In this document: positions 3,137 to 23,255 of the stretch, piece after piece
How the letters are laid out: each line of letters starts with the position of its first letter
Numbering within the stretch: the first letter of the stretch is position 1
NCBI GenBank assembly: GCA_043755815.1
Contig: JAYUSF010000108.1
Location: 1-54,625 of the forward strand
DNA length: 54,625 nt
Source: Verrucomicrobiota bacterium
GTDB lineage: Bacteria > Verrucomicrobiota > Verrucomicrobiia > Limisphaerales > UBA9464
Direction of reading: 5' to 3'
Notes under the pieces: model-generated
What the model was told of the DNA's origin: nothing
Database searches by the model: none
What the model saw: only the letters and a program-made list of their open reading frames with translations
Translations under genes and position numbers: made by a program

Positions 3137-6100
3137 TCAGTCCACATAGAGGAACTCGTTCGCGCTGAGCAACGCCTGGCAAAGGTCCGTAAGCACCTGC
3201 CGTTCGGGCGTGGGCTTCGGTTCGGCCTTGGCCTTGTCGTCTTTCTTGGCCTTGTCGTCGGCCGGAGGCGGGGGAAGCGACGCGAGGTGGGCGAGTTGGC
3301 GTTGCACGAAGGCCTGCGCCTCGGCCTGTTCGGCGGCGGTGGGCGGACGCTGGAAGGCGAGCTGCCAGGCGCGGCGGACTTGCGCGGCGCGGTCGGGGCC
3401 GGCGTCGGTTTCCAGGCGGGCGGCGAAGCGGGCGGCCTGGTCGAGCAGGAACTGGCTGTTCATCAGCATCAGCGACTGCGTGGCCACGGTGCTGTGCTGG
3501 CGGCGCTCGCAGTTCACCTCCATCACGGGCGCGTCGAACGCGTGCAGCAGCGCCAGCGGCCGGCTGCGGCGCACCTGCACGTAAACCGAGCGGCGGAACT
3601 CCTCGCCGTTCAGCGAACCTTCCACGGGCATCTTGTTGTCGCCGGTCGTCTTGTCCTCGCCCACGACGATCTGCCCGTGGACATCGGGTCGCACGGGCAC
3701 GGGCGGGCCGAACTGTTTCCGATTCAGCGAACCGCTGGTGGCGAGCACCCCGTCGCGGATGACCTCGGCGTCGAGCCGTTGGACCGGCTTGCGCCAGTAA
3801 AGGCGGTTCTCCGGATCGCGCCGTTCCTGCTTCGGGTCGCGGCGCGAGGCTTGCCGGTAAGCCGTCGAAGTGAGGATGAGCTTGTGCAGGCGCTTGAGCT
3901 TCCAGCCGTGCTGCGTGAAGTCGCTGGCCAGCCAGTCGAGCAGTTCAGGATGCGTTGGCTTCTCGCCCATCGCGCCGAAGTCCGCCGGCGTGTTCACGAG
4001 GCCGCGGCCGAAGTGGTGGAGCCAGATGCGGTTCACCAGCACGCGGGCGACGAGCGCATTCGTGCCGCTGGTGAGCCACTGCGCGAAGGCCAGCCGCCGG
4101 CCGCTGGTGGCGAAGTCGGCGCGATTCGTCGGAAACTCGATGGGTTGTCCCGTCGCGCTGAGCACGCTGAGGCCGCCGGGCAGCACCGCGGCCTTGGGTT
4201 GGTGATAATCGCCGCGGTGGAAGACGTGGGTGACGGGCTGGTGATGGGCCGGTTCGGTCAGCACGCTGAGAAAATCCTCGGCCGGCTTCTTCGCACGGAT
4301 TTCGCCGATCTTGGCGTCCATCGCCTTCAGGTCATCGGCGGCCTTCGGGTTGTATTGGTAGAGGACGCCCGGGTTGATGTTCACGCTGGGGTTGTCGGCG
4401 AGCAGCTTCTTCTGCTCGGGTGTGCGCTTGTCGGCGGGCGTGTCGTAGGCGGCCCGCAGCGGTGCGCGCAGGGCCTCGTCGAACTTCTCGAGGTGCTTCG
4501 TCAGCGCGTCGGCAAGGTAGTCCTTCTGCTTGGCTTCCTTTTCGGCCGCGAGCTTCTGCGCCTCGGCTTCAATCGCGGCGGACTGCTTCCGGTCGTCGTC
4601 GGTGTAGAGCGAGACGAGGCGTTCGCCGGGCGTGCGCCACTGCCTGTAGTCGTAGGCGGGCTCGAACACGGCGCGCAGCCGGTAGTAATCGGCGTGCGGG
4701 ATCGGGTCGTAGCGGTGGTCGTGGCATTGCGCGCAGCCGACGCTCAGGCCAAGCAGGGAGGTGGAGACGATCTTCAGCGTGTCGGCCATGACCTGATTGC
4801 GAACGGCGTCCCGGTCGGTCAAGGCGTCCGTGGCCGACCCGTCCACGCCCATGCGAAGGTAGCCCGTGGCCACGAGGAGATCGCGGGACTCGGCGCTGGC
4901 GAGCGCGACGGAAGAAGCAGAGGCCTGCGTCGCTTGGGCGAGTTCATCGCCGGCGAGCTGTTCGGTGACGAAACGGTCGAACGGCTTGTCGTCGTTGAAG
5001 GCGCGGATGACGTAGTCGCGATACTTGTAGGCGTAGGCGCGCGGCGGATCGGCGTCGCTGTAGCCGTCGGAGTCGGCGTAACCCGCGACATCGAGCCAGT
5101 GCCGGCCCCAGCGCTCGCCGTAATGCTTCGACTCGAGCAGGCGGTCGATGAGTCGCTCGTAGGCGGAGGCGGAAGATTGAATCTGGAAGGCAGGAAAGCC
5201 GGAAGGGGAAGAGCTGTTTGAACGGTTTTCTTTCGTTCCTGTTTTCCTGCCTTCCAGATTCCTCTCCGCTTCGCATTCGCGCACGAACGACTCCACTTCC
5301 TCCGGCGTGGGCGGCAGGCCGGTGAGGTCCAGCGTCACGCGTCGGATCAGGGTCACGGGATCCGCGTCGGGTGAGAACTTCACCCCCGCTGGCTTCATTT
5401 CGCTGACTAGGAATGCATCCAGCGGCGTGCGCGCCCGATCGCGGCTTTTCGTCTTCGGCACCGCCGGCTCGCGGATCGGCTGGAACGACCAGAAGGAACG
5501 TTCCTCCTCGGTGATGCCGCTGGTGCCCTTCGGCAATTCAGTGGGTTCGGGTCGCGCGGTTTTCGCGCCGGTCGCGATCCATTGGCGGAGCAGGGCGATC
5601 TCGGCCGGCGTGGGCTTCTTGTCGCGCTTTGGCATCTTGCCGCTTTCGACCAGCTTCAGCAGTTCGCTTTGGTCGGGCTTGCCGGGCACGATGGCCGGGC
5701 CGTCGTCGCCGCCCGCGAGGAGCAAGCGCCGCAAGCGCACGTCGAGGCCGCCCTTGAGCTGCTCGCCCTCGCCGTGACAGTCGAAACAATGCGCCTTGAG
5801 GATCGGCCGGATGTCCTTTTCGAAGGTGGGCGCCGGAGCGGCGAGGGCGGAAGGTCCAAGAAGGAGTCCGAACACAACCAGAGCGGCGGCTTCCAACTTC
5901 CGCAACCGCCGACGTGAAGAGGCTCCAACTGGAGACGCTGAACCGGCCAACGATGAACCAAGGGCTGCGGGGCGGTGTGGTGCAACGACCGCTTCCCCCT
6001 CACCCCAACCCTCTCCCTCGGGGAGAGGGAGTTGCTGGCCGACGCGGAAAGACTCCGCACGCGCTTTGGACAAGGGCCACCTTGTTTTCGCCGGTGTGAC

Positions 6101-7069
6101 CACTGACTGAATCGAAGCACAGCGCGTTTGACAATCCACCGGCACCGTGGCGTTCCCCCTCTCCCCGAGGGAGAGGGCCGGGGTGAGGGGGAACCGGGCG
6201 TGGTTGAAAACCGCCGTTTGACCTGCAAACCAGCTCCGCACCAACCTCTCTGCGTGCCCCCCAAGTGTCTGACCCGCGTCGCACGCGCTCTGCGAAAGAA
6301 TGACACGTGGTCTGAACAGCTCATATGGGGCTGGCTGCGAGGACGACGGTTCGCAAGCTACAAGTTCCGACGCCAGCACCCGTTCGGGGATCATGTCCTG
6401 GATTTCTTCTGTCTCGAAGCATGGCTGAACCTTGAACTGGACGGTTCGGGTCACGGCTTCCCCGACCAGCGCGCCAAGGACGCCCTCCGCGATGCCGAAC
6501 TGGAGCGGAAAGGAATCAAGGTGCTGCGCTTCTGGAATGGTGATCTGCGCCGCAACGCCCGCTTCATTCAGGACATGATCTGGCAGGCATTGCAGGAGCG
6601 GGCTCCGCACCGCGGAACGGCCGGTAAGTCCTAAGCCCATGAAACTGCGGGAGGTTTCTTTCCCCTCACCCCAACCCTCTCCCTCGGGGAGAGGGAGTCG
6701 CCCGCTCACGGCAGACAACTCCGAAAGTAATTCTGACGAAGACCGCCCTGTGTCGCCCCCTACGATCGCGGACTGAATCGCAGCACTACGCGTTGGCCGA
6801 TCCGCTGACGCAGTGACATTCTCCCTCTCCCCAAGGGAGAGGGTCGGGGTGAGGGGGAACCGCGCACCAATGCAAGCCGCCGCGTGGTTCGTCAACGGAG
6901 CGCGGACGATCACGTCCGCGAGAATTGTTGAACGCTTCCGCGCGGTTCCGGCGAACTCGAGCGGCGACTTTCCAGTCGCCGAACCGAGGCGGCTGGAATG
7001 CCGCCCCTCCATCACGGTGTCCCCGCGGACGAGGCCGTCCGCGCTCCGCAAATGTCTCTCCGCCTTCAT
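3137..7069 (-). CDS. DUF1549/DUF1553 (PSD1) protein with N-terminal planctomycete cytochrome c domain; start either ATG 7069 (coupled to upstream gene) or TTG 5905 (signal peptide)
   Basis: FEKDIRPILKAHCFDCHG (CxxCH), WSFQP, LIRRVTLDLTGLPPT, YGERWGRHWLDVAGYADS, CAQCHDH, ARVLVNRIWLHHFGRGLV, QSLMLMN, ANEFLYVD. ATG at 7069 overlaps the TGA of the DUF1501 gene (ATGA) and is in frame; MRKLEAAALVVFGLLLGPSALA from TTG 5905 resembles a signal peptide. Confidence 0.9.
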   Translation of the reverse strand: MKAERHLRSADGLVRGDTVMEGRHSSRLGSATGKSPLEFAGTARKRSTILADVIVRAPLTNHAAACIGARFPLTPTLSLGERENVTASADRPTRSAAIQSAIVGGDTGRSSSELLSELSAVSGRLPLPEGEGWGEGKETSRSFMGLGLTGRSAVRSPLLQCLPDHVLNEAGVAAQITIPEAQHLDSFPLQFGIAEGVLGALVGEAVTRTVQFKVQPCFETEEIQDMIPERVLASELVACEPSSSQPAPYELFRPRVILSQSACDAGQTLGGHAERLVRSWFAGQTAVFNHARFPLTPALSLGERGNATVPVDCQTRCASIQSVVTPAKTRWPLSKARAESFRVGQQLPLPEGEGWGEGEAVVAPHRPAALGSSLAGSASPVGASSRRRLRKLEAAALVVFGLLLGPSALAAPAPTFEKDIRPILKAHCFDCHGEGEQLKGGLDVRLRRLLLAGGDDGPAIVPGKPDQSELLKLVESGKMPKRDKKPTPAEIALLRQWIATGAKTARPEPTELPKGTSGITEEERSFWSFQPIREPAVPKTKSRDRARTPLDAFLVSEMKPAGVKFSPDADPVTLIRRVTLDLTGLPPTPEEVESFVRECEAERNLEGRKTGTKENRSNSSSPSGFPAFQIQSSASAYERLIDRLLESKHYGERWGRHWLDVAGYADSDGYSDADPPRAYAYKYRDYVIRAFNDDKPFDRFVTEQLAGDELAQATQASASSVALASAESRDLLVATGYLRMGVDGSATDALTDRDAVRNQVMADTLKIVSTSLLGLSVGCAQCHDHRYDPIPHADYYRLRAVFEPAYDYRQWRTPGERLVSLYTDDDRKQSAAIEAEAQKLAAEKEAKQKDYLADALTKHLEKFDEALRAPLRAAYDTPADKRTPEQKKLLADNPSVNINPGVLYQYNPKAADDLKAMDAKIGEIRAKKPAEDFLSVLTEPAHHQPVTHVFHRGDYHQPKAAVLPGGLSVLSATGQPIEFPTNRADFATSGRRLAFAQWLTSGTNALVARVLVNRIWLHHFGRGLVNTPADFGAMGEKPTHPELLDWLASDFTQHGWKLKRLHKLILTSTAYRQASRRDPKQERRDPENRLYWRKPVQRLDAEVIRDGVLATSGSLNRKQFGPPVPVRPDVHGQIVVGEDKTTGDNKMPVEGSLNGEEFRRSVYVQVRRSRPLALLHAFDAPVMEVNCERRQHSTVATQSLMLMNSQFLLDQAARFAARLETDAGPDRAAQVRRAWQLAFQRPPTAAEQAEAQAFVQRQLAHLASLPPPPADDKAKKDDKAKAEPKPTPERQVLTDLCQALLSANEFLYVD
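5179..5261. repeat. In-frame palindromic element (GAATCTGGAAGGCAGGAAA arms) inside PSCyt gene 1
   Basis: Perfect 19-bp inverted repeat 5179-5197 / 5243-5261; translated as NLEGRKTGT...SGFPAFQI; absent from the paralog at 14144. Confidence 0.9.
5996..6196. repeat. Composite palindromic unit A: two inverted BoxC-like CCCTCACCCC..CCCTCTCCC...GGGAGAGGG hairpins plus spacer
   Basis: cccctcaccccaaccctctccctcggggagaggga (5996-6030) and inverted copy cccctctccccgagggagagggccggggtgagggg (6156-6190). Confidence 0.9.
6254..6634 (+). CDS. DUF559 / Vsr-like PD-(D/E)XK endonuclease-domain protein
   Basis: ARALRKNDTWSEQLIWGWLR..RF..YKFRRQHP.G..VLDFFC....L.LELDGSGH....DALRDAELE..GIKVLRFWN; likely GTG start at 6254, in frame with ORF 6128-6634. 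Confidence 0.9.
   Translation: MPPKCLTRVARALRKNDTWSEQLIWGWLRGRRFASYKFRRQHPFGDHVLDFFCLEAWLNLELDGSGHGFPDQRAKDALRDAELERKGIKVLRFWNGDLRRNARFIQDMIWQALQERAPHRGTAGKS
6662..6862. repeat. Composite palindromic unit B: direct repeat of unit A, offset 666 bp
   Basis: cccctcaccccaaccctctccctcggggagaggga at 6662 is identical to 5996; the right arm ends gggggaaccg at the same offset; spacers are colinear (gactgaatcg.agcac..cgcgtt.g.c.atcc). Confidence 0.9.
6897..7047. repeat. Nested REP-like pairs
   Basis: Outer pair ggagcgcggacgatcacgtccgcg (~6898-6921) / cgcggacgaggccgtccgcgctcc (~7024-7047); inner pair gcggcgactttccagtcgcc (~6961-6980) / ggcggctggaatgccgcccctcc (~6988-7010). Confidence 0.75.
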
Positions 7070-8541
7070 GCGTCGCGCAGGATTTCCTTCACCACGCGGC
7101 AGGGTTTGCCGTCGGTGAGATGCTGGCTCTGGCCGTTCTGGAAGTAGGCCAGCTCCGCGTGATCCAGGCCGAACAGGTGCAGCAGCGTGGCGTGGTAGTC
7201 GTTCGGGCTGACGGGATTCACGACCGCCTTGTGGCCGAACTCGTCCGTCTCGCCGTAGGTCATGCCGCCCTTGAAGCCGCCGCCCGCCACCCAGCTCGTG
7301 AAGCCCTGGCCGTTGTGGTCGCGCCCCGCCTTCTCCGCGGCGCCGTGATTCTCCGTCACCGGCAGGCGGCCGATTTCGCCGCCCCAATGCACGATCGTCG
7401 AGTCGAGCAGCCCGCGCGCCTTGAGGTCCTTCACCAGCGCGGTGGACGGCTGATCGGTCTTCCGGCAGCACGTCGCGAGGTTGCTTTTGATGCCCTCATG
7501 ATTGTCCCAGATCTGGCCGTTCACGAAGAGCTGCACGAACCGCACGCCGCGTTCCACCAACCGGCGCGCGATCAGGCAGCGCGCGCCGTATTCGCGCGTC
7601 TCGTCGCGGTCGAGGCCGTAGAGCTTCTTCGTGGCCTCGCTTTCGCCGGAGATGTCCAGCGCCTCCTTGGCGGCGGTCTGCATGCGCGCGGCGAGTTCGT
7701 AGCTGGCAATGCGCGCTTCCAGATCCGCTTCGCCCGGGTGCCGCGCGAGGTGCTCCTGATTCAGGCGGGCAAGGAAGGCCAGGTTCTGTTCCTGCAACGT
7801 GCCTTTCAGGTGCGGCGGCGGATCAAGGTTCAGGATACGCGGCTCCGCCGAGCGGACGACCGTGCCCTGGAACAGCGGCGGCATGAAGCCGTTCGACCAA
7901 TTCCGCACGCCGTCCACCGGATGCCCGCCCGGATCGGTGAGCACCACGTAGGCGGGCAGGCTCTGGCTTTCGGAGCCGAGTCCGTAGGTCAGCCATGAGC
8001 CGAGTGCGGGGCGCCCCGGCTGCGCGCGGCCGGTGTTCATGAACCAGATGGACGGCTCGTGCCCGTTGATGTCCGTGTGCATCGAGCGGATCACCGTCAC
8101 GTCATCCACGATGCTGGCGAAGTGCGGCAGCAGCTCCGAAACGGGCGTGCCGCACTGGCCGTGCTGGCGGAATTCCCACGGGCTGCCGAACAGCTTCTTG
8201 CTCGCCCGATCCACGAAGCTGAACGTGATCTCGCCCGCGTAATCCTGCCCGCTGCGTTTGGTGAGCTCCGGCTTCGGGTCGAAGAGGTCGATGTGACTCG
8301 GCCCGCCGTGCATGAAGAGCGAGATCATCGCCCGCGCCCGTGGCGTCCGCGACGGCTGCTTCTGCTTCAGGTCAAAGGACTGCGGGTTGCGCGGCACGTT
8401 GGCCGGCGTGGCGAGCAGGCGTTCCTCCCGCAACATCCACGCGAGGGCCACGCTGCCGACGCCCATCGCATTGCGCGCAAGGAAGCGGCGGCGGGAGAGG
8501 ATTCCCGGCTCAGCGAACGGCAGCGGCGGAAACGGATTCAT
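7066..8541 (-). CDS. DUF1501 family protein (sulfatase-like fold, Tat-like signal)
   Basis: SRRRFL signal, RAMISLFMHGGPSHIDLFDPKP, GSWLTYGLGSESQSLPAYVVL, ARRLVERGVRFVQL, WGGEIGRLP, GRDHN, GETDEFG. Confidence 0.93.
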   Translation of the reverse strand: MNPFPPLPFAEPGILSRRRFLARNAMGVGSVALAWMLREERLLATPANVPRNPQSFDLKQKQPSRTPRARAMISLFMHGGPSHIDLFDPKPELTKRSGQDYAGEITFSFVDRASKKLFGSPWEFRQHGQCGTPVSELLPHFASIVDDVTVIRSMHTDINGHEPSIWFMNTGRAQPGRPALGSWLTYGLGSESQSLPAYVVLTDPGGHPVDGVRNWSNGFMPPLFQGTVVRSAEPRILNLDPPPHLKGTLQEQNLAFLARLNQEHLARHPGEADLEARIASYELAARMQTAAKEALDISGESEATKKLYGLDRDETREYGARCLIARRLVERGVRFVQLFVNGQIWDNHEGIKSNLATCCRKTDQPSTALVKDLKARGLLDSTIVHWGGEIGRLPVTENHGAAEKAGRDHNGQGFTSWVAGGGFKGGMTYGETDEFGHKAVVNPVSPNDYHATLLHLFGLDHAELAYFQNGQSQHLTDGKPCRVVKEILRDA

Positions 8542-8722
8542 GGGACGATACGGGTAGGATGGACGCGCCGGGGCGGAAGGGGAATTCAAGAATCGGCAGA
8601 CTCACTTTAGGGATCGACACCCCCCAGTCGCCAATCCAACAAACCCTACGGGGAGTTTTGTCTGGCCGTGCACAATACCTCAGCTTGCTCGGGACACTCA
8701 CGCCCCATAGCGTCCAACCGCA

Positions 8723-22874: not shown

Positions 22875-23255
22875 ATGGGCATGGAAGCGAAAACATCATC
22901 GGTCGGCGCTCGTCCAGACTGGAGCGGCGGTTGGTTGCGACGCCCGGTTCCCCCTCACCCTGTCCCTCTCCCTCGGGGAGAGGGGATCGACCGCGTGTGT
23001 GATGTGAGTCCACAGACGCCTCAGCCAGGGGCTGCCCATCGCCTCGCTGTATCGGAGTATCACGCGACTGGAGTAGCCTTGCTTCGTGACTTTCTCCCTC
23101 TCCCGCAGGGGGAGGGCCGGGGTGAGGGGGAAGCACGCTCAACGACTCATCGCCACTCAACCTCAATTCCTCCGCAAACGAACACCGACCTGGCATCCCG
23201 TCGGCTGAAAAGCCTCCGCTCCCGGCCGACGCGACCCACGACTGAAGACCCGTGA
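22875..23255 (+). other. REP-derived 126-aa bridge ORF between PSCyt and DUF1501 genes
   Basis: ATG 1 nt after the PSCyt TGA (22871-22873); its TGA (23253-23255) overlaps the DUF1501 GTG (GTGA); no recognisable domain. Confidence 0.45.
22951..23131. repeat. Composite palindromic unit C (same BoxC-like family as units A and B, no nuclease)
   Basis: cccctcaccctgtccctctccctcggggagagggg (22951-22985) and inverted ccctctcccgcagggggagggccggggtgaggggg (~23096-23131). Confidence 0.88.

Follow-up and report, generated by a model that had tools for sequence, protein, structure and literature searches.

The stretch of DNA analysed here (the window) comprises 54,625 nucleotides (nt) of contig JAYUSF010000108.1 in assembly GCA_043755815.1 of a Verrucomicrobiota bacterium, a 388-contig draft genome called G000 below, and all coordinates are window positions unless another contig is named. 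On its minus strand, an operon places a DUF1501 gene ahead of a gene for a PSCyt1-PSCyt2-PSD1 protein, and between the two lies an insert of 1.16 kb made of repeats and, on the opposite strand, a gene for a DUF559 nuclease. The frame that opens at the stop/start overlap at the end of DUF1501 crosses this insert without a stop codon and continues into the PSCyt protein, and actual translation is a more probable explanation for this than mere luck. Read along the minus strand, the order of elements is DUF1501, REP (repetitive extragenic palindromic) pair, unit B, DUF559 antisense, unit A, signal peptide, PSCyt1, PSCyt2 and PSD1, with the following features.

7066–8589, minus strand: DUF1501 gene, the operon's upstream member (Pfam PF07394, E=4.1e-141), with the 3' end GCA TGA.
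7066–7069, minus strand: ATGA stop/start overlap in the sequence, with the ATG (7069–7067) on the DUF1501 stop TGA (7068–7066).
5906–7069, minus strand: stop-free leader of 388 codons from the ATGA start to the signal peptide, made of inserted repeats and the DUF559 antisense.
6896–6920 and 7024–7048, unstranded: arms of a REP-type hairpin pair with nested palindromes, a second repeat family found by repeat search, with partial copies on other contigs.
6658–6882, unstranded: unit B, an inverted BoxC/TMECO motif pair (6663–6695 and 6823–6855) with a spacer of about 125 nt, found by repeat and motif search.
6254–6634, plus strand: DUF559 (Vsr-like nuclease) gene, 126 amino acids, starting at GTG 6254 in the public model (Pfam PF04480, E=6.6e-28).
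5971–6216, unstranded: unit A, a BoxC/TMECO pair (5997–6029 and 6157–6189) with extended inverted arms of 59 nt, orthologous to the single unit of the congener G004.
5840–5905, minus strand: predicted Sec-type signal peptide (RKLEAAALVVFGLLLGPSALA, then APAP), as judged from the sequence.
3137–5905, minus strand: gene for the PSCyt1-PSCyt2-PSD1 protein, mature part (Pfam PF07635, PF07583 and PF07587).

Units A (5992–6216) and B (6658–6882), each an inverted pair of a motif of about 33 nt, are direct repeats of one another with 74% identity and an offset of 666 nt (3 × 222), and no more than about 20 nt separate the insert from the ATGA overlap. From 7069 to 5906 the host frame comprises 388 codons and no stop, and then passes through TTG 5905 and the signal peptide to PSCyt1. 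No stop precedes the PSCyt body in this frame, so that leader and protein form one fused frame, and the minus-strand ATG frame as a whole is open from 7471 to 3137 (1444 codons). Over 5905–7069 the minus strand has 0, 11 and 6 stops in its three frames and the plus strand 11, 9 and 7. The initial annotation had claimed both that the ATG within ATGA opens a 388-codon frame into the signal peptide and PSCyt and that the host frame is stop-free across the insert; sequence and frame count agree with it, with no stop in the host frame against 6–11 in each of the other five.

Comparative evidence identifies the ATG of the overlap as the native start of this PSCyt gene family. The PSCyt ortholog has DUF1501 as its immediate upstream neighbour in G002, G003, G004 and G005, of the same genus, and in G014, G007 and G013, of other genera; DUF1501 orthologs in four congeners share 95–97% identity and PSCyt1-PSCyt2-PSD1 orthologs in congeners 90–93%. 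In all eight genomes with DUF1501 upstream (four genera) the ATGA ATG is in phase and the frame is stop-free into PSCyt, over leaders of 35–415 codons. The DUF1501 3' end is GCA TGA in every one of the eight, and GCA accounts for 4.3% of alanine codons; given so rare a codon at this position throughout, the start codon at the overlap looks to be under selection. G002 and G003 have no insert and carry the ATG 67 codons ahead of a FEKDIRP motif, a measure on which G000 reaches 415 codons. In G004 the leader is open over 146 codons and contains a single unit, the ortholog of unit A, without a DUF559 gene; by this comparison the insert is lineage-specific. The leader of G005 contains other REPs and spans 82 codons, while in G014 a plain signal peptide follows immediately after the ATG. 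In G005 and G013 other in-frame start codons occur only inside the hydrophobic core, so none is usable. In a further congener, G001 (L015, G001:C223), DUF1501 has been lost from the upstream position and another gene is found there; the PSCyt ortholog of G001 carries an ATG of its own together with a normal signal peptide.

The same arrangement recurs in metagenomes. A search of metagenome contigs with the last 150 residues of DUF1501 yielded 80 loci that were kept, of which 34 have a PSCyt N-terminal motif downstream and 26 of these 34 an ATGA. That ATG shares the PSCyt phase in 24 of the 26 (binomial p=5e-10 against one third, for relatives that are not independent), and 22 of the 24 in-phase loci are stop-free, giving 20 distinct leaders of 29–132 codons. 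When 17 distinct leaders are counted over their pre-signal parts, frame 0 contains seven stops, all in two leaders, against 28 in each of frames +1 and +2 once the built-in TGA is removed from frame +1. The 15 open leaders have no stop in 785 pre-signal codons, where about 13 would be expected from the other frames. Seven of 15 leaders of at least 46 codons lack any ATG, GTG or TTG 20–45 codons ahead of the mature protein, and two leaders (L172 and L175) have no alternative start at all. Orthologous loci with and without the insert are consistent with the initial annotation in that relatives conserve the ATGA start in the phase of PSCyt and the pre-signal stretch is stop-free whatever repeats are present. 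As judged from these loci, ribosomes translate the pre-signal stretch, its sequence is under no constraint, and repeats have settled in it in frame again and again. PSCyt-ortholog leaders with peptides such as GARLCRRPAAA or VAQISNL..RRLAVG, which look like in-frame copies of other REP families, were seen at L147, L154, L162, L172, L175, L181, L188, L150, L155, L171 and L192 and in G005 (L017).

We favour a reading, evenly poised between being right and wrong, in which the G000 insert is read through and its openness reflects survivorship under the constraint that keeps other leaders open, with base composition making such openness achievable. Ribosomes finishing DUF1501 would restart on the overlapping ATG and enter the PSCyt1-PSCyt2-PSD1 gene. 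Between that start and the Sec signal peptide would lie a disposable leader, free in sequence and length as long as its frame stays open, which would make it a safe landing place for repeats. In G000 it would have grown to 388 codons through the REP hairpin pair, unit B, the BoxC-flanked antisense DUF559 gene and unit A. Only in-frame, stop-free arrangements would keep the PSCyt gene translatable from its native start, and these would be within reach, codon-aligned antisense of a GC-rich gene and G/C-rich repeats rarely carrying stops. Ribosomes would cross the whole insert, and the extension would remain on the cytoplasmic side and be removed together with the signal peptide. Because the ATGA context of G000 is identical to that of relatives that have no other usable start, ribosomes should go on initiating at it in G000. 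We infer from sequence the translation of the 388 codons in G000, selection for their openness and this fate of the extension. Among the public runs listed as containing the stretch, none is of RNA.

The repeats are, by their match to Table 1 and the consensus of Holder et al. 2015 (PMC4666352), BoxC/TMECO motif pairs; BoxC/PIT/TMECO is described there as an intrastrand triplex-motif repeat, and triplex formation is predicted for the G000 copies. In the G000 units the motif reads CCCTCTCCC, 3–6 nt, GGGAGAGGG, 3 nt, GGGTGAGGG, which has the BoxC/TMECO form of a C-rich 9-mer, a loop of 3–6 nt, a G-rich 9-mer, a 3-nt loop and a second G-rich 9-mer. It occurs four times in the focal insert and six times in the window, and 128 times in G000 at up to four substitutions; the G000 genome contains 36 repeat units. 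A further inverted BoxC/TMECO motif pair in the window lies at 22952–22984 and 23096–23128. The triplex motif has been reported from 262 proteobacterial genomes, with no function assigned in that account, and the terms 'endonuclease' and 'open reading frame' are absent from its main text (PMC4666352). The repeats described here share with it the motif itself, the inverted pairs and loci that vary between relatives, but occur in Verrucomicrobiota, bracket DUF559 genes and lie in frame within genes. An Rfam match of unit A (5988–6199, minus strand) to the plant MIR1858 hairpin family was rejected as full-length but sub-threshold (40 bits against a gathering score of 137), and probably reflects only a shared long G/C-rich hairpin shape; Rfam otherwise gave a weak sbcD RNA match.

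Units of this kind are also found inside other genes. About 11 of the 36 lie within long open reading frames with coding-type GC periodicity on both sides, and six have Pfam domains on both sides. On these signs, BoxC-pair units are translated within other genes of G000. The six in-frame units, of 135–241 nt (L136–L142), are found on G000 contigs at C367:9505–9683, C97:20536–20670, C211:12200–12440, C212:14797–14932, C279:1713–1908 and C279:2448–2643. Their host genes encode an HrpA-type helicase, a NuoL-type antiporter subunit, in which the unit splits the Proton_antipo_M domain, a PSCyt2/PSD1 paralog, a DUF7133/GSDH protein and the C279 protein with its two units. The latter, a dehydrogenase/HEAT/cytochrome c protein, carries both units in frame in three species (G000, G003 and G001); in G005 the two are half or wholly gone, more distant homologs lack them, and the flanking protein is conserved. 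Rickettsia palindromic elements (RPEs; Ogata et al. 2000, as covered in the review PMC10969869) are in-frame palindromic repeats in protein genes and provide a close likeness, being palindromic repeats of about 150–200 nt carried in frame as extra peptide, with orthologs that lack the element. The same combination of a repeat within an open reading frame, conserved frame and flanks, and absence from some orthologs is found in these other genes and in the focal leader. The sequence family (BoxC/TMECO pairs) is unrelated and the phylum different, and the focal insert sits in a pre-signal leader rather than a folded domain and includes a whole antisense gene.

The alternative that survives best is chance assisted by composition, which we consider possible but doubtful. 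Here the insert would have uncoupled PSCyt from ATGA, the gene would start at TTG 5905 or 5896, and the open frame would be an accident typical of a 65% GC genome. Part of the apparent improbability does dissolve on inspection. The initial annotation had put the random expectation at around ten stops, a figure that proved overstated, as dinucleotide shuffles of the 1165 nt gave a mean of 5.6 and P(0)=0.003. Arithmetic on the coordinates places host codons in exact alignment with DUF559 codons, and because of this alignment a stop opposite DUF559 can arise only where the DUF559 strand reads TTA, CTA or TCA. These three codons amount to 0.35% of the total in 1346 confident open reading frame pieces of G000. 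In windows of 145–169 codons from real genes the codon-aligned antisense frame was stop-free in 62–66% of trials and the other antisense frames in 1–4%, and over the whole gene the aligned frame is open in 15 of 23 DUF559 genes of relatives. Long antisense open frames are common in GC-rich genes, and the 127 codons opposite DUF559 are open for that trivial reason, but this explains only a third of the 388 codons and leaves the ATGA phase unexplained. A repeat unit is stop-free in a given frame 36–41% of the time (36 units in G000). Combining antisense and unit openness with a one-third chance of phase match with the ATG, our own arithmetic puts a structured null at about 0.3–0.8%, which is low enough to speak against chance yet not negligible, and which applies to a case selected for being open. 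Applying 26 listed substitutions from a variant contig (of more than 150 differences) left the stop count of every frame unchanged and was uninformative.

Several further observations weigh against read-through and towards chance. The host frame extends 134 codons upstream inside DUF1501, a run that illustrates the ease of open frames here, and the leader lacks a coding-type signal in GC content at third codon positions (0.63/0.60/0.72 and 0.67/0.63/0.65 for the three positions, against 0.69/0.46/0.86 in the gene body). Immediately ahead of the signal peptide G000 carries TTG codons at 5905 and 5896, positions at which G004 reads TCG and CTG, and public annotation starts the G000 gene at TTG 5896. 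Export of a protein with a 388-residue extension ahead of its signal peptide would also far exceed the 146 codons known from other loci. Four metagenome lineages have 774–1552 nt between DUF1501 and PSCyt with 6–18 stops in the PSCyt frame; three of the four have lost the ATG of ATGA, and PSCyt there has its own ATG. Large closed spacers are hence tolerated, and open frames are not obligatory at the DUF1501-PSCyt junction. These spacers contain other open reading frames and neither BoxC nor DUF559, so they are not like-for-like with the G000 insert. Against chance stand the intact ATGA context, from which ribosomes should start, and the strong depletion of stops in the leader frame of relatives.

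The DUF559 cassettes elsewhere also bear on this question. Among the 101 distinct DUF559 loci assembled from relatives and public genomes (L026–L135; 103 rows with two duplicates dropped), a convincing gene follows the antisense DUF559 at 29, the rule being a length of 200 codons or more, with GC3 exceeding GC1 by 0.03 or more and GC2 by 0.15 or more (GC1, GC2 and GC3 being GC at the three codon positions). The phase of the cassette relative to the downstream gene is random (11:8:10, n=29, chi-square p=0.79; 10:6:10 with two obvious orthologous sets collapsed), and four of the 29 cassettes are fully open (the focal locus, L052 with its ortholog L057, and L037), which is about the chance rate. 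Because of this, DUF559 cassettes in general are not built or selected for transparency; the initial annotation had asked whether other DUF559-repeat inserts are open in the host frame and had named such an outcome as contradicting it. An early sample in which three of four antisense cassettes were in frame was abandoned when the effect vanished at n=29, and a genome-wide test of intergenic bridging was discarded as invalid, its GC3-based detection having called 1100 'gaps' that were mostly plainly coding. Another junction within an operon, with a vWA-type gene on one side and a secreted protein on the other (L052/L056 on G004:C223, and L057), carries an antisense DUF559 cassette that is open and in frame in two species. 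In G000 this vWA-type junction (G000:C349:5470–5930) has some 230 nt of other REPs and nothing more, and is likewise open from an ATG immediately past the upstream stop.

The view of the initial annotation that the insert is translationally transparent therefore stands in part. It gains from the use of the gene's own frame, the conserved ATGA, the stop-free leaders of relatives and the BoxC units in other genes, and loses from the overstated statistic, the random cassettes and the closed large spacers.

A second alternative, which we think unlikely, keeps the open frame as a relay only. Ribosomes from ATGA would cross the insert, melt its hairpins and prevent Rho-type polarity, while the exported protein would be made from TTG 5905 and the fusion would be a degraded by-product. 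The conserved ATGA start and open frame fit this as well, as does a well-formed signal peptide that would begin exactly at TTG 5905, and a start at that codon would give a textbook signal peptide with the n-region RK on reading the sequence. The candidate internal starts in G000 are TTG 5905, TTG 5896 and TTG 5950. The G000-specific TTG codons were rejected as proof of a new start and are only a hint, TTG being 10% of leucine codons, and a scan of 5700–7300 for sigma-70-like promoters gave no site, in a host that may use other promoter types. Initiation inside a frame that is already being elongated through is generally inefficient, and the long leaders of relatives without an internal start imply that the fused form works there. 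A similar logic has been proposed for MIRU repeats: a mycobacterial repeat at an operon start codon is tolerated when a frame through the repeat keeps upstream translational coupling (PMC12548453). Like MIRU, the focal insert lies at an operon stop/start junction, but MIRU measures tens of bases rather than 1.16 kb and has its own mini open reading frame ending on the next start (−4 spacing), whereas here the frame is fused.

It is very improbable that the assembler joined unrelated pieces at repeated BoxC motifs: the genome is a many-contig draft and unitigs of public runs do end at these motifs, but independent runs in several studies yielded Logan contigs that together tile the locus. One of these, of a separate study, is identical over 5816–6242 (PSCyt start, unit A and DUF559 5' end), and further contigs span 6171–6691 and 6824–7273; G004 has unit A at the same place, and similar cassettes occur in many genomes.

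The DUF559 gene appears to be an intact member of its family. Its product matches the DUF559 profile with 97.2 bits against a cut-off of 20.6, over profile positions 3–108 of 109, and the exact 126-residue product is found in a public protein collection. D42, E53 and D55 (numbering of the first sequence) are invariant in 17 DUF559 relatives and are putative active-site residues. Pfam matches of the product were limited to DUF559 and a weak MTES_1575, with no HUH/Y1 (IS200-like) transposase among them. The BoxC/TMECO motif flanks each of the three DUF559 genes in G000, and in the wider set it lies within 350 nt of 88 of the 101 loci, on both sides in 58, in Verrucomicrobiota and some other phyla. 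Because of this proximity, DUF559 is a candidate enzyme acting on the BoxC/TMECO repeat. A literature search combining 'DUF559' with 'repetitive extragenic palindromic' returned no paper, and among the matches listed for DUF559 no title or abstract opening concerned repeats. In REPIN/RAYT systems, a low-copy HUH tyrosine transposase gene is bracketed by a genome-dispersed repeat. The DUF559 cassettes are alike in that a nuclease-type gene is consistently bracketed by a dispersed repeat, and differ in that DUF559 is Vsr-like, of the PD-(D/E)xK type, and not an HUH/Y1 transposase, and in that the analysis brought no sign of mobilisation.

A bolder version of read-through can be put forward tentatively, in which the two genes are read from opposite strands. 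A live BoxC-framed DUF559 cassette would lie codon-for-codon within a translated throw-away leader, ribosomes started at ATGA would cross 1.16 kb of selfish DNA, and the pre-signal leaders of Verrucomicrobiota would be selected safe harbours that receive such DNA without polarity. In-frame palindromic repeats (RPEs), coupling-preserving repeats (MIRUs) and ATGA termination-reinitiation (PMC6728339) are already known. What is new is a hypervariable pre-signal leader, which we read as translated, as a landing site for repeats, together with the extreme size of the insert and the intact antisense nuclease gene inside it.

If read-through is correct, this family of secreted, cytochrome-like PSCyt proteins would truly start at the ATGA overlap, and gene callers would be placing the start tens to hundreds of codons too far downstream. 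Public PSCyt models start inside the signal peptide; those of G004-like contigs (P0006–P0015) begin at a TTG within its hydrophobic core, and for this reason annotated N-termini of the family are unreliable. The disposable pre-signal leader would then be a niche in which repeats accumulate, with staying in frame as the sole constraint. BoxC/TMECO repeats, known for decades without an assigned function, are here tied to DUF559 genes and to in-frame insertion in essential genes.

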